Position numbers and translations under genes: made by a program. A stretch of 64,000 nt of DNA from Nanobdellota archaeon. GTDB taxonomy: Archaea > Nanobdellota > Nanobdellia > Pacearchaeales > JAHJTO01. Positions 13,412-62,635 of this stretch are shown one piece after another (the stretch's first letter is position 1; each line of letters starts with the position of its first letter). The stretch is taken from the NCBI GenBank assembly GCA_042572295.1, contig JBHPFA010000001.1, forward strand, positions 79,788-143,787, read 5' to 3'. Under the pieces are notes generated by a model. The model saw nothing but the letters and a program-made list of their open reading frames with translations. It did not search any database and had not been told where the DNA came from.

Positions 13412-13464
13412 TTTCATAGTTAAGAGGTGGTGGTGCCTTAGAACCTAATTCTAAGAAAATTAAA

Positions 13465-14172
13465 ATGGGAAATCCAAGAGATAAAAAAAAGAGAGATATG
13501 TATAGGACTTCTAAAGAGAGAAATGAAGATGATGCTAAAGAAAAACCTACAGGAGTAAAAGAACAATCTGCACCATTAAGAGTTGTACAAGTCACTAATG
13601 CTTTAATCAATCATCCTGATTTTCCTAAGATTTACAAAATAGCTAATTTGATACCCGATAGGGGAAATAAATGGGCTTATTTACTTAGGACTATAAATGA
13701 GGAGATTGTTGAGGGATATAGTGTTGCACAAGCCAATGATATGGAGACTAGACAAAAGCTTCAAGGGTGTGGGCTAGAAGGATTGATATGTCCTTATCTA
13801 GAAGGAAATTGGACATTAGAAGAAAAAAGAAAGTCAACTATAGGACATGGTCTTTGCTATATTAATCGTGAAGAAATAGATACATTATGTCATGGAGATT
13901 ATGAGCATTGTAACCAATTCAAAGGGCATGCTCAGCAAATAGCATTGGGTTATAAAGAACCTACAAAATTCATAAGAACGAAAAATCCTTTGAAAGTTCC
14001 TGATGTTGATATTGGAGAATTTAATCTAAGAGATTTCATACAAGATTTAGATGATTGGTGGAAACAAGAGGGGAAGTATGGAGAAAATGAAGAATGGGAT
14101 CATTCACAAACCAATGCCTATGGTGGATTACATCCTAACCGCGGAGAAGGAGGACCCTATAGTGGACGATGA
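13465..14172 (+). CDS. Hypothetical Cys/His-rich protein with basic N-terminal peptide
   Basis: N-terminus RDKKKRDMYRTSKER is shared with the next ORF. Cys/His cluster CPYLEG...HGLCYINREEIDTLCHGDYEHC. The stop overlaps the next start (ATGA at 14169). Confidence 0.55.
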   Translation: MGNPRDKKKRDMYRTSKERNEDDAKEKPTGVKEQSAPLRVVQVTNALINHPDFPKIYKIANLIPDRGNKWAYLLRTINEEIVEGYSVAQANDMETRQKLQGCGLEGLICPYLEGNWTLEEKRKSTIGHGLCYINREEIDTLCHGDYEHCNQFKGHAQQIALGYKEPTKFIRTKNPLKVPDVDIGEFNLRDFIQDLDDWWKQEGKYGENEEWDHSQTNAYGGLHPNRGEGGPYSGR

Positions 14173-15029
14173 AAGATACTGGAATGCTTGGAGATAGAAA
14201 GAAGAGAGGCTTATATCAGAAAGCCAAGGCTAGAAGTGTAGAGATAAGTAAAGAGGTTGAAAGAAAGGCTAGACTAAGTCCTGGATCTGATGCTAAGAAA
14301 GCAAAGCCGAAGAAGAAAAGAGTAAAAAAATCAGGCACTCAAATAAAACTTGATAGAGTTAAGCCAGGCAGGGGCTTGGTTCCTCTCAAATATCAGATGA
14401 ACTTAAGCAAGCTTGAACAACCAAAAGATGTTTTTTATATCAGATTAACTCCTCCGGAAACAGCACATGTAAAAAGTCATATAAAAGAAATAAAAAAATA
14501 TATGGCTTCTATAGATGAGAAATACTATTTGATAGCAGGTGTTGGGGGAGTTTTAAGGAATCAAAATCATCGTAAAGCCAAAGATATTGACTTAGCAGTT
14601 GTCGGACTGAAATATGCTTGGGGGAATCATAATTTTCAAGATGTTGAGAAATTCACTAAACATGCCAAAGGTTATTTTGACAATTATTGCAGCTCATTGA
14701 ATAATCAATTTGAAAGTCAATTGCATGGAGGAAGTGATTGGAAGCCAATAGGTTTGGGAAGCGGGCCTATGGCAAACCTAAACACTGCTCTTGAAGGAGA
14801 AATGGCTGGAAGGAAAGTTGAAGTTGTCTCTTCATTGGAAGACTTTGGGATGTGGGGCTCAAAAGGGTTTCAAGTAAACTATGAGGATTCTAGACCTATT
14901 GATGTACAATTTTTGTTTAACAAATCGATTGAAGAATGGTTCATTGATCAGAAAAAACCTAGACATGCTGGATTCAATAAAAATAACATGAAAGAATTAT
15001 ATTATTCTATATTGTACAAGAACAAATAA
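14169..15029 (+). CDS. Pol-beta-superfamily nucleotidyltransferase-like protein with basic N-terminal peptide
   Basis: GVGGVLRNQNHRKAKDIDLAV fits the minimal NTase motif hG[GS]x9-13Dh[DE]h. A downstream Asp lies in RPIDVQFLF. N-terminus is GDRKKRGLYQKAKAR. Confidence 0.5.
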   Translation: MKDTGMLGDRKKRGLYQKAKARSVEISKEVERKARLSPGSDAKKAKPKKKRVKKSGTQIKLDRVKPGRGLVPLKYQMNLSKLEQPKDVFYIRLTPPETAHVKSHIKEIKKYMASIDEKYYLIAGVGGVLRNQNHRKAKDIDLAVVGLKYAWGNHNFQDVEKFTKHAKGYFDNYCSSLNNQFESQLHGGSDWKPIGLGSGPMANLNTALEGEMAGRKVEVVSSLEDFGMWGSKGFQVNYEDSRPIDVQFLFNKSIEEWFIDQKKPRHAGFNKNNMKELYYSILYKNK

Positions 15030-25071: not shown

Positions 25072-26502
25072 ATGGTAGATATTAGAACAGGATTGACTTT
25101 TTCTGACGTATTATTAGTTCCTAAAAGAACTCCTTTGAATTCTAGAGCAGAAGCTGATCTAAGTACAAGATTTACTAAGAACATCAGGTTGAATGCTCCT
25201 TTAGTCAGTGCTAATATGGCTACTGTTACTGAACATAAAATGGCTATAGCAATGGCTCGTGAAGGTGGTTTGGGAGTAATTCATCAATTCAATACAATTG
25301 AAGAGCAAGTTGAAGAGGTTAAGAAAGTAAAAAGAAGCACAAGTTATGTTATTGAGAATCCTCTTTCAGTTGGTTCTGGTTTGACTATTGAAGAAGCAGA
25401 TAAAGTCATGTTAGAGACAGGGGTTACAAGTCTATTGATAGTGGATAATAGAGAATTACAAGGAATATTCACTAAAAGAGATTATTTGTTCATAAATGAT
25501 CATTCAAAGAAACTTTCCGAAGTGATGACTCCTAAAGAAAAGCTAGTTACAGCTGATTGGGGGATTAGTACAGATGAAGCTAAGCACCTCTTGTATAAGA
25601 ATAGGATTGAGAAGTTGCCTTTGTTAGAAAATGGAAAGTTAAAGGGATTGATAACTACCCAAGATATTGTTAAATTGGAGAAATGGAAGGATGCAGCAAG
25701 AGATGAAAAAGGAAGCTTATTGTGTGGAGCTGCTATTGGAGTTAAAGATACTTTGGAAAGAGCTGAAGCTTTGATTAAAGCTGGAGTTGATGTTATTGTT
25801 TTAGATATTGCCCATGCACATTCTGATTTGATGATTAATAGAGTTAAAGAGTTTAAGGAAAAGTTTCCATCTGTTGATTTGATGGTTGGGAATATAGGGA
25901 CTGGAGATGCAGCTAGAGATCTGATTGAAGCTGGAGCTGATGGATTGAAAGTTGGAATTGGTCCAAGTCCTGTTTGTACTACAAGAGTTATTTCTGGAAG
26001 CGGAATGCCCCAAATAACTGCAATAATGGATGTCTGTTCTATTGCTAAATTATATGGAGTACCTGTATGTGCAGATGGAGGGATGAGTTATCCTGGAGAT
26101 GCTGCAAAAGCGATAGGTGCTGGAGCAAGTACTGCTTTTTCAGGAACTTTCTTTGCAGGAACTGATGAAGCTCCTGGAATGATAATAATGAAGAATGGTA
26201 AGAGGTATAAGAGATATGCTGGAAGCGCTTCTTATGAGAGCAGTCATGAAAGGAAAGAGAGATCTGAAAATAAGAGGTTAAAAGAGAAGATTGATGTGTT
26301 TGTAGAAGGTGTTTCAAATCTTGTTGACTATAAAGGGCCTGTTGAAGGTGTTATAAGATCAATTCTTAAAGGAATTAAAAGTGGTGCTAGTTATTGTGGA
26401 GCAATAAATATACAAGAGATGCATAAAAGGGCAGAGTTTGTAAGAATCACTTCAAGTGGATGGCAAGAAAGCCTTTCTAGAGGCCAGAGATTATCTGAGT
26501 GA
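25072..26502 (+). CDS. guaB: IMP dehydrogenase (with CBS subdomain)
   Basis: LTFSDVLLVP, VSANMATVTE and the catalytic loop GIGPSPVCTTR. CADGG and a CBS pair insert are present. Confidence 0.85.
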   Translation: MVDIRTGLTFSDVLLVPKRTPLNSRAEADLSTRFTKNIRLNAPLVSANMATVTEHKMAIAMAREGGLGVIHQFNTIEEQVEEVKKVKRSTSYVIENPLSVGSGLTIEEADKVMLETGVTSLLIVDNRELQGIFTKRDYLFINDHSKKLSEVMTPKEKLVTADWGISTDEAKHLLYKNRIEKLPLLENGKLKGLITTQDIVKLEKWKDAARDEKGSLLCGAAIGVKDTLERAEALIKAGVDVIVLDIAHAHSDLMINRVKEFKEKFPSVDLMVGNIGTGDAARDLIEAGADGLKVGIGPSPVCTTRVISGSGMPQITAIMDVCSIAKLYGVPVCADGGMSYPGDAAKAIGAGASTAFSGTFFAGTDEAPGMIIMKNGKRYKRYAGSASYESSHERKERSENKRLKEKIDVFVEGVSNLVDYKGPVEGVIRSILKGIKSGASYCGAINIQEMHKRAEFVRITSSGWQESLSRGQRLSE

Positions 26503-27423
26503 TTCTTTAGGAGCATAAGTCCTAAATGCTTCTTTATTGAAAAGTTCCTTTAAAGCATAAATATCAAACTTATGGTCTGTTTTATTGAATTCAAAATAAG
26601 TATTCTTGAAATGCCTTCCAGTAAGTGCTAATGTTCCTAGAATATCCAACATTTTGTGCCTTACTAGCTCATTTCCATCATATCTGAATCCTCTCATGTT
26701 TGGATCTCCATTTGATTCCTCACTTAGAAAACAATAGTTTGTCTTAGTTGCACCATGGATTCCTAAACTTCTTGTAATGTCCACTAAAGATTCTGGTAAT
26801 TTGTATTTTGTCTTTATAGGAGGTCTTGCAGACATTACTTCTTTTTCATAATTTGAAGGGCTTACATCGAAAAGAAATTCTCTGTTCCCTATGGCTTTAT
26901 GGTTGTAAAAAGCCTTGCTTCTTATATTAAATCCATTACCATGCATCACTTCTAGGCTGCAAGGTTCTTTTTTATGAGTATTATCTTTATTGCTCCATAA
27001 CAATGTTGGAGATTCTTTAGAATACTCCCAAAACTCTTTTGGAGAGTCTTGTATGTATAAACCTGCTCTTTTTAGTGCTTCAAAATATTCCTTTCCACAG
27101 TTATCTGTTGTTGGGCAAGTATCATCTGATAATTCAATTACTAAATTGTCTATGCCTAAAGCATAAACTGAAGATAAGATGTGTTCGACAATATGGATTT
27201 TTGCATTGCCATTCTCTACAGCAAGAGTCCTTCCAAACGTTCTTTGGACTTGTTTAGCGTTTTCTAAGTTAGCCTCAACTAAATCTTTCCCTAATAGAAA
27301 AGCTAATCCACTGTCTTGTTTTGCAGGGTGGAACACTGCTTGATTGTTTAGATTGTTGAATATATTTATTCCTTTCACCACCACTGGGCGATTAATAGTA
27401 GTTTGTAAATCCGGTCTACTCAT
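26491..27423 (-). CDS. LpxC-fold (UDP-3-O-acyl-GlcNAc deacetylase-like) zinc deacetylase homolog
   Basis: [23 protein letters not shown] aligns with E. coli LpxC [39 protein letters not shown] aligns with EFVRHKMLDAIGDLYM, so the Zn ligands His/His/Asp are conserved. Confidence 0.65.
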   Translation of the reverse strand: [310 protein letters not shown]

Positions 27424-29034: not shown

Positions 29035-29081
29035 GTTTTATAAACACATTTTTTCTTAAATAATCGTGCAGTAATGCATAT

Positions 29082-29154
29082 GGCTCCGTAGCTCAATGGC
29101 TAGAGTACTGGCCTTTTAAGCCAGGTGTTGCGGGTTCGAGTCCCGTCGGAGTCA
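29082..29154 (+). tRNA. tRNA-Lys(UUU)
   Basis: Acceptor GGCTCCG/CGGAGTC. D arm GCTC-AATGGCTA-GAGT. Anticodon arm CTGGC-CTTTTAA-GCCAG. T arm GCGGG-TTCGAGT-CCCGT. Discriminator A. 73 nt. Confidence 0.9.
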
Positions 29155-29155
29155 T
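29143..29155 (+). repeat. att-like core copy 0 (inside tRNA-Lys 3' end)
   Basis: CCGTCGGAGTCAT. The 18-nt version GAGTCCCGTCGGAGTCAT starts at 29138. Confidence 0.85.
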
Positions 29156-29214
29156 GTACCCTTTTGACTGATTCAAGAGATGCCAACTATTTCTTAGAAA
29201 TCTTCTAAAATTAT

Positions 29215-30186
29215 TTAATTTTCAAAGATCATTTTCTTTGCTGGGAAAAGGTGATCTTCACCCATTATTGCAGTCTCTACTTTATTGATAACTTTTGAAA
29301 ATTCTTTTGTTAAATCCGAAATAATCTCAAGATAATCATGATAACTTTCACTCATAATCTCTAACTCTATATCCCAAGGACTTATTTGTTTTACCAAATG
29401 AATTATTTTTGGATTTCTCTTTGAATAATTCATCAATCTTTTTTCATCTTCTATTGCCAAATTCTTGAAATATAAAAAAGTTTTATAGAATTCATACCCT
29501 AAAAGATTAAAGTCTATCTTAGCAGCATATCTAAAGATGATCCCCTTATCTCCTAATTTCTTCATCCTACTTCTTATAATATCTATTGTGGAGTTATACT
29601 TTCTTGCAATATCAACGAGATTGATTCTGGCATTGCTGAATAATTCTTTGAGTATCTTCTTCTCTACTTCATCCAAGATGTAATCTCCTTGTATGCCAAA
29701 CATAACTTTCCATTCTGTTTCTGATTCATAAAGAAAAGTTTTATCATGCACACTAACATCTACCAATACCCCTGTATAACTTTCTAAAATAAGATCTTTG
29801 AATTTTGAAAATAATTCATTTTTCAGTTCAAAGAATTCTCTGTTTGACTTTACAAAATATGTTAGGCCAGCATTCCAAGCTCCCTCTGCAATTCCAAGCC
29901 ATAAAAGCCTTTTATCTCTCTTTACAAATTCTACAAATTTCTTCTTTTGTTCAGGCTTATTAGAAAATTTAAGATATATCTTCGCAGTAGTATACCCTAC
30001 TTTTGTAGGATCTATCCAAATAGTATATCCTTTTAGGACTCCTTTATTCTCTAGTTGTTTAATTCTATACCTTACTGATTCCTTAGATTTCCCAATTATT
30101 TTTGCTAATTTTGTTTCTGGAATTCTACAATTCCTATCTAGCTCAAAGAGGATCCTTCTATCTGCCTTATCTAAGTTTACTACCAT
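29215..30186 (-). CDS. Tandem-duplicated Lrp/AsnC-family transcriptional regulator
   Basis: Two HTH+RAM-like units: LDKADRRILFELDRNCRIPETKLAKIIGKSKESVRYRIKQLENKGVLKGY and LDEVEKKILKELFSNARINLVDIARKYNSTIDIIRSRMKKLGDKGIIFRY. Confidence 0.75.
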   Translation of the reverse strand: MVVNLDKADRRILFELDRNCRIPETKLAKIIGKSKESVRYRIKQLENKGVLKGYTIWIDPTKVGYTTAKIYLKFSNKPEQKKKFVEFVKRDKRLLWLGIAEGAWNAGLTYFVKSNREFFELKNELFSKFKDLILESYTGVLVDVSVHDKTFLYESETEWKVMFGIQGDYILDEVEKKILKELFSNARINLVDIARKYNSTIDIIRSRMKKLGDKGIIFRYAAKIDFNLLGYEFYKTFLYFKNLAIEDEKRLMNYSKRNPKIIHLVKQISPWDIELEIMSESYHDYLEIISDLTKEFSKVINKVETAIMGEDHLFPAKKMIFEN

Positions 30187-30286
30187 TTTAGTAAATAATC
30201 GTTTATATTTATAAATATTTCCATTTTTTGACTAAAATACTGAAGAAACTTTAATATATAAAGTATTACTATCCAGTAATAATAAA

Positions 30287-31021
30287 ATGGGAATTATAAA
30301 AAACCACAAGACCTTAATAGAAAAACTAAAAGAATCAATTAGTGAAACTAGTAAAGAGCTCATTGCTATTCAAGCAGGCCATTTCCCTCTTCGCCTTAAT
30401 AAGGGGAAAAGAATTCTTGAAGAAGGGTTAGATACATGGGGAGAATTTAGTGAGTATACTTTTGATGTAGGGTGTGAACTTGCAAAATACTCTCAAGAAT
30501 TAGGAAAAAAGACAAGAGTTTACATTGTTTGTGATGACTTACGTTATGCGAAAGGGTATAACCTCTCCCGTGAAAAAGATCCGAGACTCATTAAATGGCA
30601 AAAAGCAAGATTAAAATTTTATAGGGACCAATCAAAGACTCTGCCAAATAAATATGAGGAAATTTTGAAAAAGTATCACTTGGGCAATGAATTAATTGTT
30701 AAACCAAATAATCCAAAAAATAATTCTAATTATTTTTCAGAGGTAAGTTTAAGAGACAAGAATAAAGATAGGCTATGTCTTAGCTATTCAGCATGTAAAG
30801 ATGAATACCTTGGATTATTAGACAAATATATCTCTGAAGAAAAAGATTATTTCATTAGTTTTATCCCAAATATCTGCTCCCATGCAATACAAGATGCGAT
30901 CTGGGTAGATAAGCCAAATTTGAAAACAAGTCATATTTTTGTGGATACAGGGGTTAATTCCCCTCTAAAGTCAATTGATAGGCAATATATCGATGAAGAT
31001 ATCACAGTCTATAGAAAGTAG
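30287..31021 (+). CDS. Hypothetical protein (element A cargo)
   Basis: 244-aa ORF divergent from the Lrp-like gene across an AT-rich palindromic TATA region. No motif recognised. Confidence 0.55.
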   Translation: MGIIKNHKTLIEKLKESISETSKELIAIQAGHFPLRLNKGKRILEEGLDTWGEFSEYTFDVGCELAKYSQELGKKTRVYIVCDDLRYAKGYNLSREKDPRLIKWQKARLKFYRDQSKTLPNKYEEILKKYHLGNELIVKPNNPKNNSNYFSEVSLRDKNKDRLCLSYSACKDEYLGLLDKYISEEKDYFISFIPNICSHAIQDAIWVDKPNLKTSHIFVDTGVNSPLKSIDRQYIDEDITVYRK

Positions 31022-31095
31022 GAATCTATAAATACTGGTGCCACTTTGGTGCCTTATAATCATTTGGCATCTCTGTGATCAGTCACAATGGTGTA

Positions 31096-31113
31096 GAGTC
31101 CCGTCGGAGTCAT
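31096..31113 (+). repeat. att-like core copy 1
   Basis: GAGTCCCGTCGGAGTCAT, identical to tRNA-Lys 29138-29155. Confidence 0.85.
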
Positions 31114-31244
31114 CTACTCTCATGGTAAATCCAAGAGTCACAAACCTGTACAAGTCCTGTATAAGTTTAAGCCTTAATTCTAACATAAACTAAACAGTTT
31201 AAAAGGATTGTCGAGAGTGAGTGGATGTGTTAAGCATTGGCGAG

Positions 31245-31637
31245 CTAATCTGATTTTATTGGTCCTCTTGACAACAATTCTAATTTAACCACCTTTTTAC
31301 AATAATCAAAGAATGTTCTCCGCTTCACCCCTATTGCAGCCGCCCCAATATATCCCATTCCTCTTTCAACTTGAATACAAGATCTTCTTAATACATGCGC
31401 CCTTATCTTATCTTCTAACTTTAGATCTACTGGAGATGTTACTATCTTGCTATCCACCTTTGAAAAGAAGAAAATGTTATGCTCCCTGTATGCTGGGGGG
31501 CTTGTCTTCTGGTGAATTGTATAAACTGAGATATATCTGTTTAAACCTAAAATTTCAATATAGTTTGTTTGTAATCCACGAATATCTCCTTCTATTTCTT
31601 CAAGATACATTCTTTGAAATCGATTTAAATTTTTCAT
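31245..31637 (-). CDS. 130-aa minimal tyrosine-recombinase-like protein (tentative)
   Basis: GAGAGGAG RBS and TTTATA/TTATAAAT boxes lie upstream. Candidate catalytic residues in order: GLNR, HQK, AHVLRR (HxxR), then Tyr in FFDY 31 residues after the His. No N-terminal DNA-binding domain and no second His. Confidence 0.35.
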   Translation of the reverse strand: MKNLNRFQRMYLEEIEGDIRGLQTNYIEILGLNRYISVYTIHQKTSPPAYREHNIFFFSKVDSKIVTSPVDLKLEDKIRAHVLRRSCIQVERGMGYIGAAAIGVKRRTFFDYCKKVVKLELLSRGPIKSD

Positions 31638-31796
31638 TTTACTCCTCTCAGAATTAGGTTCTGAGGCACCAACACCTCTAATTTATAAGAAGGTTAGGGG
31701 TATAAAAGCTTTCCCAAGACTTACAATTTTATATTTAACCTGTATAAAACCTGTATAACTTTGTGTCTCTCTAATTTACCACAACTATCCAGTGTG

Positions 31797-31809
31797 CCGT
31801 CGGAGTCAT
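31797..31809 (+). repeat. att-like core copy 2
   Basis: CCGTCGGAGTCAT. Confidence 0.8.
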
Positions 31810-31900
31810 TCCAAAATTTCTATGGCCCTTAAGTGTCCTCTTCAGAAGTTTTATATATCTCTCTAACGAGGAATATAATATCAAAAGGGAGGCTGATTAA

Positions 31901-32056
31901 ATGATAGAATATAAAACAATGGGTTGGTTACAGCTAATTGGGGCTGTTGTTGCAGGTTTTTTTGGATATCAAGATAGTAATTGGGGTGTTTTAACTCTTG
32001 CAATAGTGCTACTATTAACATCCATACACCACCTAACCACTAAAAAGAAACATTAA
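31901..32056 (+). CDS. 51-aa two-helix membrane peptide
   Basis: Not in ORF track. GGGAGG lies 8 nt upstream of the ATG. Translation is MIEYKTMGWLQLIGAVVAGFFGYQDSNWGVLTLAIVLLLTSIHHLTTKKKH. Confidence 0.45.
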   Translation: MIEYKTMGWLQLIGAVVAGFFGYQDSNWGVLTLAIVLLLTSIHHLTTKKKH

Positions 32057-32090
32057 TTTTTAATTAGTAAATGAAAGGGGGAAATGATAA

Positions 32091-32735
32091 ATGAAAAAAA
32101 TATTTATTTTATTAGCAACTTTAGTTTTAGCAAGTGCTTTTGTTTTAGCTCAAGGTCAAGGAATTCATGAACCTGGAACTGGCATTGAAAATCCTGAATT
32201 AAAAGCTGTAGGCCAAGGAACTGGACAAGGCTTAGAAGAGGGTGAAGTAATGGGTGCCGGAGAAGGTAAAAAATTAAGAGCTGAGGCTGGAACCTATAAA
32301 AATCAGGCAGGTATGCAAATGCAATTACATAGGCAAGAAAATGGCCAATGTAGGCTTGAAGTTGAAGGGGTTATTGCAGATTGTCCGAATAACATGACTC
32401 AAGAGATGTTCCAAAATAGGACAAGGTTACATACAATGCTTTCAAATGGAAGGGATGCAGAAATTAAAGTTATGCCAAATACTGCTTCAGAAACTGCTTT
32501 ACAGAGATTGAGGTTAAGAAATTGTGACGAAGATTGTCAAATTGAACTTAAAGAAGTAGGTGCTGGAGAACAAGTAAGAGCAGCTTATGAAATGAAAGCT
32601 CAAAGAAACTCAAAAGTTTTTGGATTATTCAGGGCGAGAATGCAAGTTCAAGCACAAGTTGATGCTGAAACTGGAGAGTTGATTCAAACCAAGAAACCTT
32701 GGTGGGCTTTCTTAGCAACAGAAGCTGAAGAGTAA
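32091..32735 (+). CDS. Secreted protein, unknown function
   Basis: Signal peptide MKKIFILLATLVLASAFVLAQG. Gly/Gln/Glu-rich N-terminal region and two Cys pairs. C-terminal block VDAETGELIQTKKPWWAFL. Confidence 0.6.
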   Translation: MKKIFILLATLVLASAFVLAQGQGIHEPGTGIENPELKAVGQGTGQGLEEGEVMGAGEGKKLRAEAGTYKNQAGMQMQLHRQENGQCRLEVEGVIADCPNNMTQEMFQNRTRLHTMLSNGRDAEIKVMPNTASETALQRLRLRNCDEDCQIELKEVGAGEQVRAAYEMKAQRNSKVFGLFRARMQVQAQVDAETGELIQTKKPWWAFLATEAEE

Positions 32736-32774
32736 TTTTTTAATTTATTTTTTCTTTTTCTTTATTTTTTTATT
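32736..32774 (+). terminator. Long oligo-T tract after 32091..32735
   Basis: TTTTTTAATTTATTTTTTCTTTTTCTTTATTTTTTTATT. Confidence 0.45.
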
Positions 32775-33065
32775 TTATTGACTTGGGTCTCTACTCTCTA
32801 TCTTAATCGCTTTTCCTTTTACTATTGCTTCTGCTATTTTCTTTCTTCCAGATTTTAGAATTCTTGATAATGTAGGCTGAGAAACATTCATTTTCTTTCC
32901 TGCCTCTTCTTGAGGAATTTCATTTAAATCTACTAATCTAATTGCCTCAAATTCTGGCATGCTTAGGACAGTTTCTTCTAGATCAATCATCCTTATACCT
33001 GCAGGTTTAAAATATGAAGAGTTAGGCTCTCCCCTAACTCTCCTTCTAATACAAGGTCTAGGCAT
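32775..33065 (-). CDS. DUF134 (UPF0251) HTH DNA-binding protein
   Basis: MPRPCIRRRVRGEPNSSYFKPAGI...LSMPEFEAIRLVDLNEIPQEEAGKKMNVSQPTLSRIL. Start taken at the ATG at 33065, because the track's longer start at 33104 would overlap the upstream DUF5320-like ORF. Confidence 0.75.
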   Translation of the reverse strand: MPRPCIRRRVRGEPNSSYFKPAGIRMIDLEETVLSMPEFEAIRLVDLNEIPQEEAGKKMNVSQPTLSRILKSGRKKIAEAIVKGKAIKIESRDPSQ

Positions 33066-33066
33066 T

Positions 33067-33213
33067 TTATTGGTTATTTCTTCTTCTACCAAGACCTCTT
33101 CCACAAGGCCCTAAACCTTTTCCAACTACAGGTTTTGCATCTTTGCAATCTCCTAATTGTCTTCCAGTTTTAGGCCCTTTTCCATCAGGTCCTGTTCCGT
33201 CTTTATTTGGCAT
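33067..33213 (-). CDS. DUF5320-like small Gly/Pro-rich protein
   Basis: Not in ORF track. GGAGGT lies 8 nt upstream. Translation is MPNKDGTGPDGKGPKTGRQLGDCKDAKPVVGKGLGPCGRGLGRRRNNQ. The stop is 1 nt before the DUF134 start, and DUF134/DUF5320 pairs are a known association. Confidence 0.6.
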   Translation of the reverse strand: MPNKDGTGPDGKGPKTGRQLGDCKDAKPVVGKGLGPCGRGLGRRRNNQ

Positions 33214-33380
33214 ATTATTGTACCTCCATGTTATGAATACCTATTCATTACTACTATATATACTTTTTGGTTATCCCTTAATAAGTCCTGATTATAGAAA
33301 ATTATTTAAACTCCAGCGACGTTAAATGATTAACAGGCACATTAAACTCTTGTAAGAGTCATAGATTTTCTGTAATGGCA

Positions 33381-33393
33381 CCGTCGGAGTCAT
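33381..33393 (+). repeat. att-like core copy 3
   Basis: CCGTCGGAGTCAT. Confidence 0.8.
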
Positions 33394-33420: not shown

Positions 33421-34599
33421 CTAGAATGTCTTTCCGAGAGTTAGTGAATGAAGATTTCCTTTAAAATCACATAACTCTCTGGCAATATTTCCTAAAGACC
33501 TTATTTGAGAACCACTAGTATAAACATCATCAAATAAAATAACATTTTTGAACTCTCTGAGGGATGTTCCTTTCTTTACGCCAGTGGTTGAGTAATGCCC
33601 TTCTCTGTTTCCCCCTTCGTGTGAGGAAGATTTTGGATATACTCTATAAAAAACCCTTTTTGATAAACTATTGCCAAAATGATTTGAATTAAGACTTTTT
33701 GTAATTACATTATTGATATCATAAAAATAGCAAAACTCTGGAAGAGAGTTGGGTGCTGCAAGAATTGCTGTTTCTCCTACAAGATTCATTGAGTCTATCT
33801 TTTTTAGAAGGGTGCTATAAAAATTTTGAATAACATCCTTAAATCTCTTTCCTTCTTTGATCCTTCCATTGAAAAAATATTCGCTTCTTTGCCCCTCTTT
33901 TATTTTTGATCTTCTAATTTCTTTACTTTCTTTGAACCTTAAAACATCTGAAGCAAAGTCGTATTTGGGATTATTTGCATAAGGATATTTAGTAACAGGA
34001 TAGTAATCATCTAGGAAAGATAACTTTATTTCAGGGTCTCTTAAGGGGGCTGTTTCTAGAAATGCATATTTTTCAGTGTTTTCTCTTTTGTTATAATTTA
34101 TTTTTCCTTCCCCAAACTTTTCTATTGCTTCTTCCAGCTCAGAAATATCTGAAACAATAATGGAGGGTTCTGATTTTGCCAGTCTTTTGGGAGTACTTTC
34201 TCCCCAAGTAACTGCAATAGAAGGTATTTCGAGCCCATGGGCAGTTAGCATATCTATAGGATTATCTCCAATTATTATTGCATCTAAAAACATTGAGGAT
34301 TTGTGTAATAGCTCTGCCTTATTTGGTTTTCCCAGTGAGGCATTTATTTTTATTTCAGAAAAACCATGTTTTCTTAGTAAAACCTCTGAATAGTCATGTG
34401 GAGAGTTTGTTACTATCTCTGCTTTTTTATGTTTACTAAGTTTATTTACTAGTTTAACCAACTGATCATAATAGGGCTTAGTAGGGACCTTATCTGGATT
34501 CTCCACCACAAATTGTTTTCCCTCTCTTGTGCAATTGAATGGTCTAAGTCTACTTGTATCAATTAATGTTCCATCCAGGTCAAATAAGCATTCTCTCAT
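33421..34599 (-). CDS. HAD-phosphatase domain fused to ComFC-like phosphoribosyltransferase domain
   Basis: N-terminal HAD motifs are LFDLDGTLIDT (I), IVTNSP (II) and K...IIGDNPIDMLTA (III/IV). The C-terminal PRTase PRPP loop is NVILFDDVYTSGSQIRSL, as in ComF/ComFC. Confidence 0.65.
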   Translation of the reverse strand: MRECLFDLDGTLIDTSRLRPFNCTREGKQFVVENPDKVPTKPYYDQLVKLVNKLSKHKKAEIVTNSPHDYSEVLLRKHGFSEIKINASLGKPNKAELLHKSSMFLDAIIIGDNPIDMLTAHGLEIPSIAVTWGESTPKRLAKSEPSIIVSDISELEEAIEKFGEGKINYNKRENTEKYAFLETAPLRDPEIKLSFLDDYYPVTKYPYANNPKYDFASDVLRFKESKEIRRSKIKEGQRSEYFFNGRIKEGKRFKDVIQNFYSTLLKKIDSMNLVGETAILAAPNSLPEFCYFYDINNVITKSLNSNHFGNSLSKRVFYRVYPKSSSHEGGNREGHYSTTGVKKGTSLREFKNVILFDDVYTSGSQIRSLGNIARELCDFKGNLHSLTLGKTF

Positions 34600-35462
34600 T
34601 TTTTGTTAATCCTTTTGATATTCTCTTTGTAATTTTCAAGCCAATTATGGTTCTTTAAGAAATTATTGGCTAAAACATAGATTGGCTTGTCCTGTTCTGC
34701 ACAAGACTTTATAGCATGTTGGGTTCCAGACTTATCTGAAGCCTTTATTACAACAATCCCTTCTGTAGAAAGTGAGACTGTTGTGAGGTTTCTATGTGCA
34801 AAATAAGAACTAAACGTTCTTATGCCGATAGGGTACTGGGAAACTAGTAAGTGCTCTTTAGCGATTATTTCCTGCAATTTTTTGTTTGAGCTAGGGTAAT
34901 ATTGATTGAGAGGAGTTCCTAAAACTGCAATTGTGCTTTTTCCAGCTTCAACTGCTTTAGTATGGGCAAGAGTATCACAACCTTTTGCCAGCCCGCTAAC
35001 AATAACATAATCTTTCTCCAGAAGTCTTTTCAATACATTAAATGCTTCCCCATATGCTGCTCGGTCTTTGTTTGGATAAATGTGTCTTGTTCCAACAACT
35101 GCAATATTTTCCCTATTTAGTAAACTTTTATCTCCCCTTGTATAAATTACAGGAGAATTTCCTTCTTTTTTCATGCTTTCAGGGAAGTTAGAATCATTTA
35201 CTGTTAGGACATCAAAGTCAAAATCTACCTTGTCTAGTGTGCTTATGACTTTTTCTATTCCTTTGATACTCCTTATAGAGTCCCCTACAGATAAAACATC
35301 TGGATTAAGGCTTTTGTAGATATTCTCAAAGCTCCCATATTCTAGAAGTTTTTCTCTAACAGAATCATTAGAACTTTTGGTTCCAATATTCATTTTTTTT
35401 GAGTAAATTAGGGCTGCATGAAACAGGCTTTCGTTTTTACTCTTATTTTCATATAGGGCCAT
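34596..35462 (-). CDS. dprA: DprA/Smf-like (SLOG Rossmann) protein
   Basis: IAVVGTRHIYP...VIVSGLAKGCDTLAHTKAVEAGKSTIAVLGTPLNQYYPSSNKKL...LLVSQYP...FAHRNLTTVSLSTEGIVVIKASDKSGTQH follows the DprA Rossmann-domain consensus. A 4-nt overlap links it to the downstream HAD-PRTase gene. Confidence 0.7.
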   Translation of the reverse strand: MALYENKSKNESLFHAALIYSKKMNIGTKSSNDSVREKLLEYGSFENIYKSLNPDVLSVGDSIRSIKGIEKVISTLDKVDFDFDVLTVNDSNFPESMKKEGNSPVIYTRGDKSLLNRENIAVVGTRHIYPNKDRAAYGEAFNVLKRLLEKDYVIVSGLAKGCDTLAHTKAVEAGKSTIAVLGTPLNQYYPSSNKKLQEIIAKEHLLVSQYPIGIRTFSSYFAHRNLTTVSLSTEGIVVIKASDKSGTQHAIKSCAEQDKPIYVLANNFLKNHNWLENYKENIKRINKK

Positions 35463-57239: not shown

Positions 57240-58247
57240 TTAAACTAAAGAAGTACTGTCTTCTGTTTCTTCAACTTCTTCTGTTCTATCATCACAATAA
57301 TCGAACAGATTAGTTACTTCAACATCATGTCTAGGGACGCCTCTCAACTTATACTCTTCTTGAGTCTTTCCGTTAAATATCCCTTCCCCTACTCTTTCGA
57401 CTAAACGTTCTAAACCACGGTCTCTTGTTAAAATGTGTACTGGTTGAAAATAAGCTAAAGAATAAGCAGTTGCAACAATTTTATTATCAGTATTCATAAC
57501 TAAGCCATTTCCTGCTTTTTTACGTCTAGTTAGGTTTCCTACAGCTTTAAATCTCATATCCTTTCCATAGTTTAAAGCTAATGAGATAAGGGGGATGTAA
57601 TTTCTATAACCCATCTTGAATTTTCCATTTAATTCTTCTGAATCTATATCTGCAAGACCATTCATTTTTGCAAGAACAGATTCAAGAACTTTTTTCTCCT
57701 TAGGAATTAAACATCTTCTGAATCTTTCCATTTCATCCTTATATAAATCACTCAATTTCTTTGTTTGATCGTTAGTTTTCTTGAAGAAAGAAACTCTTAG
57801 ATCGTGCTTTTTTAGTCTCTTTAAGATACTATGGAAATCATTAGAATAATCTTCAAGGAGTTCTAATTTGTCTCCGTATTTCATTACAGCCCCTCTATTC
57901 AAGTCATTTCTCAAAAAGCTTAGAGAATTATGAACACTGTCTAATCCTACTTTTAGTTCTTCATAAACTTCTCTAAGAATTACTATATCCCTATTAGGAA
58001 AGTGATCAACAAAAGCATTTACTTGATCTATTTTTCCTTTCAAATAATTCTCAGTTAGATCTTTAACACCATGCCAACCACTTCCAATTTTCCAAAGAAG
58101 TTCCTCATTTTTAGGTGAGAAAGCACAGGTGTCTACGATTACAATTTGTTCTTTTGGAATCTTTTTTAGCTCTTCTAGAGCCTCTAATACGTCTTCCATG
58201 TATATAATAGGCCTATAGAGTTTTAAAACCTTTCTAAATGTAACCAC
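57240..58247 (-). CDS. PIN-domain-like nuclease with large internal insertion
   Basis: Acidic quartet in PIN order: IVIVDTCAF, VILREVYEEL, MNTDNKIVATA and ILTRDRG. An alternative start at 58199 (MEDVLEAL) has TTTTAAAA about 27 nt upstream. The stop is 2 nt from tRNA-Ser. Confidence 0.45.
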   Translation of the reverse strand: MVTFRKVLKLYRPIIYMEDVLEALEELKKIPKEQIVIVDTCAFSPKNEELLWKIGSGWHGVKDLTENYLKGKIDQVNAFVDHFPNRDIVILREVYEELKVGLDSVHNSLSFLRNDLNRGAVMKYGDKLELLEDYSNDFHSILKRLKKHDLRVSFFKKTNDQTKKLSDLYKDEMERFRRCLIPKEKKVLESVLAKMNGLADIDSEELNGKFKMGYRNYIPLISLALNYGKDMRFKAVGNLTRRKKAGNGLVMNTDNKIVATAYSLAYFQPVHILTRDRGLERLVERVGEGIFNGKTQEEYKLRGVPRHDVEVTNLFDYCDDRTEEVEETEDSTSLV

Positions 58248-60200: not shown

Positions 60201-61418
60201 ATGATAGGTGATTACCTCAGACTTTCTATAAACACATTAAAAGTCAGGAAACTAAGGACTTCTTTGACTATGTTGGGTATTTTTATTGGTATAGCTGCTG
60301 TTGTAGCTCTAATTTCTTTAGGCCAAGGAATGCAAGAAGCAATCAATGATCAATTTGAAAAAGTTGGAATCAATAGAGTTATGATAATGCCTGGAGGAAG
60401 TCAATTCGGTCCTCCTGGAGGCTCTTTATCTGTTGCAAAGTTAACTGAAGATGACTTTGAATTAATAAGAGATGTTAGAGGTATAGAGAAGGCCCAGGGA
60501 ATCTATGGAGAAACTATAGAGGTAAGTTTCCATGACGAAGTTCTATTTACTTCAGTATGGGGTGGTTATACTGACAGTGATGCTTTAGAATTCATGGGAG
60601 AAATTGATTTCTTTGATATAGAATATGGAAGAGAATTAAGAGATGGAGATGATAGGCATGTTGTTTTAGGATATAATGTCGCAAATAAAGAATTTGATGA
60701 AAAGATTGAGATTGGGGACAGAATAGAAATAGATGGAGACAAATTTACAGTAGTAGGTATTCAGAAAAAAGCAGGAACTGGAATACATGATCAGTTTGTT
60801 AGAATAACTATGGATACTGCTAGAGAAATATTTAATGAGACTGATGAGATAAGCCAAATATTTACTTCTTCTGGAAATGAAGAACCAGGAATTGTTGCTG
60901 AAAGAGTTGAGAAAGCATTGAGAAAAGCCCATGATGTTGATGAAGGGGAAGAAGACTTTACTGTACAGACTTCTGAACAAAGTATCAGACAACTTACAGA
61001 TATTTTGAATATAATCCAAGTATTTTTAGTAGGGATTGCTGCAATTTCATTATTTGTTGGTGGAGTAGGAATCATGAATACAATGTATACTGCAGTTATG
61101 GAAAAGACTAGTGAGATTGGAGTGATGAAAGCTGTAGGTGCTAAGAATTCGCATATATTCTCATTATTTTTAATGGAATCTGGTATGTTAGGACTGGCTG
61201 GAGGAATTGTAGGAGTTGTTATTGGTTTAACAATGAGTAAATCTGTAGAGATTATTGCAAAGCAAATGGATCTTGTTGAGATATTCAAAGCTTCAACAAG
61301 TCTTTATTTGATTTTTGGTGCGTTATTATTTTCATTTTTAGTTGGAGGACTTTCAGGAGTGTTTCCTGCAATGCAAGCTTCAAAGTTACATCCAGTGGAG
61401 GCTATTAGAAAAAGATGA
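60201..61418 (+). CDS. ABC transporter permease, FtsX/MacB family
   Basis: N-terminal TM (LRTSLTMLGIFIGIAAVVALISLG), a large extracytoplasmic domain, and the C-terminal FtsX block GGVGIMNTMYTAVMEKTSEIGVMKAVGA. Confidence 0.85.
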   Translation: MIGDYLRLSINTLKVRKLRTSLTMLGIFIGIAAVVALISLGQGMQEAINDQFEKVGINRVMIMPGGSQFGPPGGSLSVAKLTEDDFELIRDVRGIEKAQGIYGETIEVSFHDEVLFTSVWGGYTDSDALEFMGEIDFFDIEYGRELRDGDDRHVVLGYNVANKEFDEKIEIGDRIEIDGDKFTVVGIQKKAGTGIHDQFVRITMDTAREIFNETDEISQIFTSSGNEEPGIVAERVEKALRKAHDVDEGEEDFTVQTSEQSIRQLTDILNIIQVFLVGIAAISLFVGGVGIMNTMYTAVMEKTSEIGVMKAVGAKNSHIFSLFLMESGMLGLAGGIVGVVIGLTMSKSVEIIAKQMDLVEIFKASTSLYLIFGALLFSFLVGGLSGVFPAMQASKLHPVEAIRKR

Positions 61419-62635
61419 TTGCAGATTATTTTAAATATGTTACACAAGGAATAAAACAAAGAAAATTAAGAGCTTGGCTTACAATGCTTGGAGTTATTGT
61501 GGGTATTGCAGCTGTTGTTTCTCTTGTTAGTTTAGGTCAAGGGTTACAAAATGCTGTTGGAGAACAATTTGAATTGTTAGGGACTGATAAGATATTCGTA
61601 GCTCCTGGAGAATCATTGATGGGAGCATTTGGTGCGCCTGCCGGAATAGAATTGACTGATGATGATTTAGATGTTATAAAAGGTGTTAATGGGGTAGAAT
61701 TTGCTGGAGGATTTATATCTAAGATTGGAGAGATTAAATTCCGTGATGAAATAAAATATACTTTTGCTAATGGAATGCCTGCAGATGAATCTATAATGGA
61801 AATATTCAGTAGTTTTCAAGGTTTTGAGATAATTAGAGGTCGTAATTTAAAACCTTCCGATAAATACAAGGCCTTGGTAGGAATAATGCATTATGAAGGA
61901 GATGTTTTCGATAAAGAAGTAGATTTGAGAGATACTTTAATAATTGAGGGCCAGGAGTTTAAAGTTGTTGGAGTTATTGGAAGAATTGGAAATCCTTCAG
62001 ATGATAGTCAGGTTTACATTCCTTTAGAAACTTCAAGAGAAGTTTTTGATGAGCCAACAGCTTATACTGTTTTATTGGTTCAAACTAAAAAAGGTATAGA
62101 TGTTTCTAAAGTTGCTGAGGACATAGAAAAAGCCTTAAGAAAATCTAGAGACGTTGAAGAAGGCGAAGAAGACTTTGCTATTCAAACTTCTGAACAATTA
62201 GTTGAGGTTTATGGAAGTGTTCTTGGAATTGTTACTGCTGTTTTGATAGGAATTGCTGCAATTTCTTTGTTGGTTGGAGGAATTGGAATCATGAACACTA
62301 TGTATACTGCTGTTCTACAAAGAACTTCGGAGATAGGAGTCATGAAGGCTATTGGGGCCAGGAATTCAGATATATTAACTCTATTCTTAATTGAATCTGG
62401 TTTGTATGGAATGCTTGGTGGTGGAATTGGAATATTGATTGGAATGGCAATTGCTTATGTTGTTGTTTTAGTAGGCCAACAATATGTTGGAGAAGCCTTG
62501 CTTAAAGCTGATTTCTCATTACTCATAATTGGTGGATCATTGGCATTTTCATTCTTTGTTGGAGTGTTGTCAGGAGTTGCTCCAGCTTATCGTGCTTCTA
62601 AGCTTAAACCTGTAGATGCTTTAAGGTATGAGTAA
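61415..62635 (+). CDS. ABC transporter permease, FtsX/MacB family (paralog)
   Basis: Same architecture as the preceding permease, with GGIGIMNTMYTAVLQRTSEIGVMKAIGA. ATGA overlap with the preceding gene. Confidence 0.85.
   Translation: MIADYFKYVTQGIKQRKLRAWLTMLGVIVGIAAVVSLVSLGQGLQNAVGEQFELLGTDKIFVAPGESLMGAFGAPAGIELTDDDLDVIKGVNGVEFAGGFISKIGEIKFRDEIKYTFANGMPADESIMEIFSSFQGFEIIRGRNLKPSDKYKALVGIMHYEGDVFDKEVDLRDTLIIEGQEFKVVGVIGRIGNPSDDSQVYIPLETSREVFDEPTAYTVLLVQTKKGIDVSKVAEDIEKALRKSRDVEEGEEDFAIQTSEQLVEVYGSVLGIVTAVLIGIAAISLLVGGIGIMNTMYTAVLQRTSEIGVMKAIGARNSDILTLFLIESGLYGMLGGGIGILIGMAIAYVVVLVGQQYVGEALLKADFSLLIIGGSLAFSFFVGVLSGVAPAYRASKLKPVDALRYE

Follow-up and report, generated by a model that had tools for sequence, protein, structure and literature searches.

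A 0.7-kb unit with a single orphan gene, stacked in tandem with two others at the 3' end of a tRNA-Lys gene of a DPANN archaeon: a possible integrase-less integrative element

The DNA considered here is a stretch of 64,000 nucleotides ('the window', 64 kb) from the 200,740-bp contig JBHPFA010000001.1 (positions 79,788 to 143,787 of the forward strand; assembly GCA_042572295.1) of a Nanobdellota archaeon, and its subject is the middle one of three short units, designated A, B and C, that lie in tandem behind the tRNA-Lys(UUU) gene, together with ORF130, the open reading frame (ORF) of 130 amino acids that unit B carries. The three units, of 1.96 kb (A), 0.70 kb (B, 696 bp) and 1.58 kb (C), are delimited by a 13-nt core, CCGTCGGAGTCAT, of which the window contains exactly four copies even when up to two mismatches are allowed, all of them on the + strand (expected number, 0.16). 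Within tRNA-Lys the core runs from the T-stem through the acceptor stem to the discriminator base, plus 1 nt. ARAGORN placed the tRNA-Lys(ttt) gene at 29081-29155, in line with the Rfam assignment given in table 1; tRNA was the only kind of RNA gene matched by Rfam, and no RNA gene was found in unit B. A host gene of the HAD family starts at 33421, after the fourth core. An array of this kind is what successive integrations into the 3' end of a tRNA typically produce.

All four cores are identical, while the 5 nt to their left vary with the unit (GAGTC, GTGTG, TGGCA), and the identity with the tRNA extends over 18 nt at the second core (31096-31113) and over 13 nt at the other junctions. Perfect cores with a variable left flank fit a requirement for identity only from the exchange region to the end of the tRNA.

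Table 1. Coordinates of the array at tRNA-Lys and of the features of its units (positions in the window)
Feature	Position	Strand	Remark
tRNA-Lys(UUU) gene	29082..29154	+	Integration target (attB side); Rfam RF00005, 69.2 bits
Core copy 1, CCGTCGGAGTCAT	29143..29155	+	tRNA-Lys 3' end + 1 nt
Unit A	29156..31100		Between core copies 1 and 2
Unit A, 323-aa protein	29215-30186	-	Double AsnC-type winged helix-turn-helix (wHTH) regulator
Unit A, 244-aa protein	30287-31021	+	Cellular type
Core copy 2	31101..31113	+	Left boundary of unit B
Unit B	31114..31796		Between core copies 2 and 3; middle of stack
B left inverted-repeat arm, TGGTAAATCCAAGAGTCACAAA	31123..31144	+	
B left direct-repeat pair, CCTGTACAAGT / CCTGTATAAG	31145..31165	+	11-nt phase
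ORF130	31245..31637	-	Orphan basic protein, 130 aa
Leader motif, 32 nt	31647..31678	-	Palindrome CTCAGAA-N5-TTCTGAG, just 5' of ORF130
B right direct-repeat pair, CCTGTATAAAA / CCTGTATAAC	31739..31759	+	
B right inverted-repeat arm, TGGTAAATTAGAGAGACACAAA	31760..31781	-	Read on the - strand
Core copy 3	31797..31809	+	Right boundary of unit B
Unit C	31810..33380		Between core copies 3 and 4
Core copy 4	33381..33393	+	Array end

From each core inwards, unit B presents one arm of a 22-nt inverted repeat followed by a pair of direct repeats (iterons). The arms agree at 18/22 positions and have a local score of 19, whereas none of 3000 genomic control pairs scored above 16; they are subterminal, 9 nt (left) and 15 nt (right) from the core, and the two spacers are not inverted copies of each other. 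The iterons, CCTGTACAAGTCCTGTATAAG (31145-31165) and CCTGTATAAAACCTGTATAAC (31739-31759), are alike at 17/21 positions and belong to a 26-nt direct-repeat family with 22/26 identical positions (85%). Each end of B contains two copies of CCTGTAYAA in 11-nt phase, and four of the five CCTGTAYAA sites of the window fall in these iterons (expected, 0.9). The first-pass annotation of this DNA had the coordinates of B, of its inverted repeat and of both iteron pairs right, and the 17/21 match and the CCTGTAYAA pairing that it reported were reproduced. When the two ends of B are joined through one core, a dyad site of approximately 81 bp results, in the order two direct repeats, arm, core, arm, two direct repeats. 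The direct repeats give the site a polarity, as the arm-type sites of lambda attP do.

Unit A is built in a similar manner. Its inverted-repeat arms (29158-29186 and 31064-31092) are alike at 24/29 positions (score, 20) and begin 2 nt from the core. No inverted repeat above background was detected in unit C, the ends of which could not be aligned with those of A or B in core register. With the core kept in register, the A and B ends are identical at 39/68 positions (21/37 on one side and 18/31 on the other), whereas 20000 null trials averaged 18.9 and reached 35 at most, so that, on the evidence of this alignment, A and B are sister units with homologous ends. The inverted repeats are, at the same time, private to each unit, with scores of 20 (A) and 19 (B) within the unit and of 6-9.5 across units.

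The joined ends of A and B could be aligned without gaps over 81 columns each, with columns 1-29 paired with columns 81-53. Comparison of the paired columns of A with those of B revealed 13 invariant pairs and seven in which both sides had changed with complementarity kept, but no pair that had stayed paired after a change on a single side; with the partner column slid by 1-3 positions as a control only 0-1 compensatory pairs were obtained. The seven compensatory double changes imply that the dyad symmetry has been maintained since A and B diverged, and the evidence that compensatory change preserves it is moderate, coming as it does from one pair of sequences. In both units the arms are offset by 6 nt, and the dyad axis therefore coincides with core position 4, near where the core begins on its left: the axis is the T of CCG-T-CGG, and CCGTCGG is made up of the first seven bases of the 13-nt core. 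In unit C, the last 6 nt together with the core form a 19-bp near-palindrome with the same axis. Folding of the joined ends as single-stranded DNA put the core at the apex, with z values of -5.9 for A and -3.1 for B.

A separate resemblance concerns A and C. A 17-nt segment of the right arm of A, GTGCCTTATAATCATTT (31049-31065), recurs inverted at 33324-33340 in the right arm of C with 15/17 identical positions and at a similar spacing from the respective core (36-57 nt); it may be a site for a shared accessory protein.

The NCBI entry for ORF130 is ACFLZZ_00775, a hypothetical protein from a Nanoarchaeota archaeon; its neighbour is ACFLZZ_00770, likewise hypothetical. The gene is present where the first-pass annotation had placed it, with the Shine-Dalgarno-like ribosome-binding site (RBS) GAGAGGAG, also reported there, 5 nt 5' of the ATG. 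Its codon-usage score of 0.175 corresponds to the 5th percentile of windows from real genes and is above the 95th percentile of antisense frames (0.075), and the antisense ORF of 114 aa that overlaps it scores -0.242 and looks non-coding. From codon usage, ORF130 probably codes for a protein.

The leader of ORF130 contains a 32-nt motif, GAGGTGNTGGTGCCTYAGAACCTAATTCTRAG, found in exactly two copies in the window (expected, 0.00), at 13424-13455 (+) and 31647-31678 (-), both of which stop 9 nt before an ATG. The former copy begins 12 nt behind tRNA-Asp and is followed by an unrelated ORF of 235 aa that belongs to no family. The 7-bp palindrome common to the two copies, CTYAGAA-N5-TTCTRAG, includes a paired T:A to C:G change between them; since its folding as RNA is weak, the motif may be an operator. 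No match to it was found in viral contigs. An 18-nt inverted repeat (17/18) also joins the interior of ORF130 (31439-31456) and the ORF for the 51-aa membrane protein of unit C (31963-31980), both of which carry TGGATA(G/T)CAAGATAGTAA in the mRNA sense; a match of this kind was obtained in 3% of shuffles and in 1/57 other 1.1-kb windows.

The ORF130 product is basic (pI, 9.73) and an orphan. An exhaustive HMMER search over 1.84 billion representative sequences returned the protein itself alone, as did a word-index search; no family match was obtained in Pfam (whole protein at E<=1, halves at E<=10), NCBIfam, PHROGs or the PDB sequences, and a six-frame search of the window yielded no paralogue. 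In the first-pass annotation ORF130 had been proposed as a possible tyrosine recombinase on the basis of an R (GLNR), a K (HQK), an HxxR (AHVLRR) and a Y. These residues are indeed located in the protein as described (R34, K44, H81-x-x-R84 and Y112), with 47 residues from R34 to H81, 31 from H81 to Y112 and 28 from R84 to Y112. In lambda Int, XerD and Cre the spacing between the first Arg (R-I) and HxxR is about 96-116 residues, so that the 47 residues of ORF130 are roughly half of what is usual. An ordered R..K..HxxR..Y pattern arises in 9.1% of shuffles of ORF130, which makes its occurrence here no better than chance. The catalytic domain of tyrosine recombinases, with its R...HxxR...Y signature, comprises approximately 180 residues (PMC8371274), while the whole of ORF130 has 130. 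The profile search proposed along with the recombinase reading was negative for tyrosine recombinases (Phage_integrase, PF00589; archaeal SSV, pNOB8 and XerA types), and the reading is not supported, there being no family match, too short a protein and a residue pattern within chance. It had also been suggested that ORF130 might act in trans on A and C; this is unlikely because the inverted repeats are private to each unit.

Other types of enzyme fared no better. For serine recombinases (Resolvase, PF00239), no Pfam or NCBIfam match was found and no YxRVSTxxQ-like motif could be seen by eye in ORF130. For the Y1 HUH transposases of IS200/IS605, which resemble B and ORF130 in element and protein size, there was no Pfam match and no HUH (His-hydrophobic-His) triplet in ORF130, and B carries a flanking 13-nt direct repeat, unlike IS200/IS605, which have hairpin ends and cause no target duplication. 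As to excisionases and recombination directionality factors of the Xis/HTH_17 type, the C-terminal 54 aa of ORF130 matched no Pfam family at E<=10; a pattern resembling a helix-turn-helix (HTH) was noted, by eye only, at residues 96-115. A single-sequence AlphaFold2 model was of low confidence (predicted local distance difference test, pLDDT, 44.7), with a helix, three strands and two helices, and Foldseek comparison of this model with the PDB gave no match with E<0.2 and only noise, so that the model counts neither for nor against a recombinase fold.

A weak resemblance of residues 88-128 of ORF130 (31245-31400) to a segment of bacterial IMP dehydrogenases (IMPDH), the only one met with in the PDB, was considered and set aside as chance, because the single domain was never significant (whole-sequence E value, 0.037; single-domain E value, 3.4). 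The pattern shared by these C-terminal 41 residues is RGMG..GA..G.K.R.F..KK.V....R.P.K, and the IMPDH encoded in the window does not contain the motif.

The search for the protein that recombines the array was extended beyond ORF130. No match to recombinase, transposase or Cas1 families was found in the ORFs of A, B and C or in 27 further ORFs of the window that were scanned, which include those adjoining tRNA-Asp and tRNA-Ser and many of which match no family; further long ORFs of the window were identified from their translations only (RNA polymerase subunits, EF-2, EF-1 alpha and others). Unit A lacks an ORF130-like gene, though its ends are homologous to those of B. Unit C contains genes for a 51-aa small membrane protein, a 214-aa protein, a DUF134 protein and a DUF5320 protein.

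Unit B is without a recognisable recombinase and is read as a non-autonomous unit. With a probability that we put roughly at 0.45, somewhat short of even odds, B is a miniature att-bounded unit that has no integrase, in which ORF130 is an accessory DNA-binding factor or cargo. On this reading, the three-unit stack would have arisen through successive site-specific insertions at the tRNA-Lys(UUU) 3' end, with B coming to lie in the middle. Strand exchange would take place in or around CCGTCGG, as indicated by the dyad axis and the identity of the cores; the AGTCAT part of the core would be carried by the element, and insertion would rebuild the acceptor end of the tRNA. The geometry of the A and B ends, as aligned here, fits such a symmetric site-specific exchange with reconstitution of the tRNA end. 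Insertion of unit B, and its excision if it is still active, would depend on a recombinase whose gene lies in another part of the genome or on a helper element, and B would be either a non-autonomous unit, mobilisable in cis or in trans, or a recent fossil of one. ORF130 would be a fast-evolving, small basic protein, most likely a DNA-binding accessory, specificity or regulatory factor for the repeats of B, or else plain cargo. The exchange region, the part assigned to ORF130 and the provision of a recombinase in trans are inferences and not results, and what is least certain is whether B can still move or has become a fossil.

Several observations weigh against this reading. No helper recombinase was found among the ORFs scanned in the window, and the contigs searched yielded neither an empty site nor another junction nor a further copy of B. 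Private, covarying arms are not expected if one shared recombinase serves the array, and point instead to site-reading proteins specific to each unit or to a hairpin substrate; the covariation itself rests on two sequences only. The symmetric arms are also placed at 12-40 bp from the axis, a greater distance than is usual for the core-type sites of tyrosine recombinases (lambda, Cre, Xer). The first of the two directions in which the private arms point, which preserves the idea of the first-pass annotation in a reduced form, would make A and B members of an unrecognised class of self-specifying integrative cassettes of less than 2 kb in DPANN archaea, each unit having its own DNA-binding protein: in B, ORF130 would read the private dyad arms and direct repeats and either recruit a host recombinase to the 7-bp CCGTCGG or carry out the exchange itself. 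We consider this a distinctly doubtful proposition, but if it were true B would be the smallest self-directed integrative element known.

Units of the kind to which B is assigned, bounded by att sites, lacking an integrase and placed in a tandem stack at a tRNA gene, are known. Both tandem stacks at one tRNA and archaeal integrated elements without an integrase have been described (PMC8371274, PMC9897764). The closest counterparts in bacteria are the cis-mobilisable elements (CIMEs), decayed att-bounded units that can still be mobilised by the integrase of a neighbour or of a helper, and the tandem accretions that they form in streptococcal islands of ICEs (integrative and conjugative elements) and of IMEs (integrative and mobilisable elements), in which att copies of a tRNA 3' end, absence of integration genes and a tandem position at tRNA-Lys are found as in B, and newcomers insert at the att site while older units are pushed along, as appears to be the case here (PMC5704250). 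In agreement with the features that define such elements, B is flanked by exact cores matching the tRNA-Lys 3' end, and its only credible gene, ORF130, has no recombinase signature, a statement that rests on absence of a match. B differs in being found in a DPANN archaeon, with no related autonomous element or integrase known; furthermore, the units described here are far smaller (0.7-2 kb), and have long, dyad-symmetric and covarying arms and an orphan gene of their own. The archaeal elements that tyrosine integrases of the SSV, pNOB8, pTN3 and SNJ2 types insert at tRNA genes share with B the tRNA 3' end as target, borders formed by direct repeats of a tRNA fragment, tandem arrangement and, in some cases, absence of an integrase (PMC8371274). 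B differs from them in having neither an integrase gene nor split int(N)/int(C) halves at its borders, in its size (0.7 kb versus 9-23 kb or more; PMC8371274) and in the length of the identity block, which is 13 nt in B and about 44 nt in PYG1 (PMC9897764). Similarities can also be drawn with attP sites of the lambda type, which have direct repeats on both arms, inverted repeats around the exchange region and a small basic protein encoded beside the site; unlike these, B has no Int that could be found, ORF130 matches no Xis/HTH family, and there are 12 bp between the axis and the beginning of the inverted arms. New in the present case are the group to which the host belongs, a very small size, dyad arms that are long and covary, and an orphan gene.

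Among the alternatives, the one that B is an inert fossil, derived from a larger integrated plasmid or virus by an internal deletion that removed the integrase and most genes, with the att scars and arms as leftovers and ORF130 as a remnant or a young ORF that plays no part in recombination, is unlikely but the most probable of them. It would account for the absence of an integrase from A, B and C alike, as in decayed archaeal integrated elements (PMC8371274), for an ORF130 that has no homologue and a codon score as low as the 5th percentile of real genes, and for the ends of C, which are already unrecognisable. The state of B itself speaks against it: both ends keep matched inverted and direct repeats at 82-85% identity, the four cores are free of mismatches, B is a compact and complete unit that has an RBS of its own and a promoter-like leader, and the seven compensatory changes between A and B imply selection on the ends after the two had diverged. 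Rather improbable is that A, B and C are non-autonomous transposons with terminal inverted repeats (TIRs), similar to casposons and served by a Cas1 in trans, that duplicate a preferred 13-bp target at the tRNA end, so that the cores would be target-site duplications (TSDs). Casposons have TIRs, TSDs of 14-15 bp or longer and tRNA 3' ends as targets, and tandem casposons at tRNA-Leu share one TSD (PMC4779613). The likeness to the present array is evident, in that inverted repeats stand beside a short duplicated tRNA-end sequence (in A only 2 nt from it), each unit has its own pair of them, as in families of TIR elements, and neighbours share one copy of the duplication. Nevertheless, as regards Cas1, TIRs at the very tips and a TSD of fixed length, no match to Cas1, PolB or any transposase family was found in the ORFs scanned, the repeats of B are subterminal, and the identity with the tRNA varies (18 nt versus 13 nt). 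Moreover, the centre of symmetry of the arms falls within the core and is not that of the unit.

The two remaining alternatives bear on how the private ends of B are read, and both are very improbable. One is that ORF130 is a new minimal site-specific recombinase or nuclease, of any catalytic type, that moves B autonomously. ORF130 is the only gene of a unit with complete and matched ends, the B-private inverted repeat suggests a specificity encoded by B, and the protein is basic and contains an HxxR, a Tyr 31 residues after the His and a YCKK motif; these indications are to be set against the lack of any support from family, structure or homologues, the 130 aa compared with a catalytic domain of approximately 180 aa, the spacing of 47 residues between R-I and HxxR, a residue pattern that recurs in 9% of shuffles and the absence of an ORF130-like gene from the sister unit A with its homologous ends. 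The other, to which we attach equally little weight, is that the joined ends act as a single-stranded hairpin with the core in its loop, recognised by structure as attC sites, the attP of CTX phage and HUH origins are. Pairing has been kept while the sequence diverged (seven compensatory pairs, none changed on one side only), the folding values reported above place the core at the apex, and integron cassette arrays without an integrase do occur in Nanoarchaeota (PMC9668308). These arrays, known as clusters of attC sites lacking integrases (CALINs), are like the present one in consisting of short units of one to a few genes, in having imperfect palindromic sites conserved by structure and in the absence of a recombinase nearby (PMC9668308). 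The array at tRNA-Lys differs in that B is without the R''/R' signature of attC (R'', RYYYAAC; R', GTTRRRY; exchange at G/TT), inspection by eye showing that the core contains no GTT and that the junctions are devoid of an R' box GTTRRRY; the core is derived from a tRNA, the genes lie on both strands with start and expression signals of their own, in contrast to the mostly co-oriented, promoterless ORFs of integron cassettes, and the repeat halves are split evenly over the ends of the unit, unlike in attC. Furthermore, no IntI or HUH family match was found in the ORFs scanned, and a dimeric protein bound to two half-sites would produce the same covariation as a hairpin.

If B is a miniature unit of this kind, its 0.7 kb, with complete ends selected as recombination sites and a single orphan gene, would place it among the smallest integrative units described, in a group, the DPANN archaea, whose mobile elements are almost unknown. 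The comparison of A with B provides a rare sign, from sequence only, of selection acting on the dyad symmetry of an att site, and suggests CCGTCGG as the exchange region in tRNA-Lys. If the recombinase is encoded by the host or is of unknown type, the array would be a substrate with which to find it; if B is a fossil, what is seen is one of the ordinary traces that earlier integrations leave.

Searches for relatives of the element outside the window gave little. The tRNA-Lys 3' end, searched for in 185k species genomes, was found in bacterial tRNAs only; the core had no match in viral contigs, and BLASTN of unit B against phages and plasmids returned nothing relevant. The iteron pattern was found at no fewer than 129 loci in viral and metagenome contigs, but it is too unspecific and the matches are due to chance, none among the matches listed sharing the core, further sequence of B or ORF130. 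The nearest relative of the HAD gene that follows the array is only 46% identical. A distant contig of 737 kb from JGI keeps the DprA-HAD gene pair and has no tRNA there.

As for the surroundings of the array, an LpxC-family match (E value, 4e-40; 26491-27423 -) and a DprA match (E value, 7e-46; 34596-35462 -) were obtained in this genome, which is labelled Nanoarchaeota. Integrases were also looked for beside the other two tRNA genes, without success: the 3' ends of these tRNAs are not repeated nearby and no family match was obtained. The ORF adjoining tRNA-Ser (335 aa, 57240-58247 -) and those adjoining tRNA-Asp (235 and 286 aa, 13465-15029 +) have no Pfam or NCBIfam match and are not evident integrases.

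The 244-aa protein of unit A was also considered as a shared recombinase and rejected, its homologues being cellular and no match to a recombinase-like fold having been obtained. Its structural model (pLDDT, 68) gave weak, non-significant matches (best E value, 0.028), none of them recombinase-like. Six homologues were found, all in ordinary cellular operons: in one archaeal lineage the gene has a MacB/FtsX permease gene on either side, and in another it follows tsaD; with such homologues and no recombinase-like fold, the protein is cargo. In the window, the two genes of a MacB/FtsX pair (60201-62635) are adjacent to each other without the 244-aa gene, which is found in unit A, an arrangement that suggests that a cellular gene was captured or relocated as cargo.

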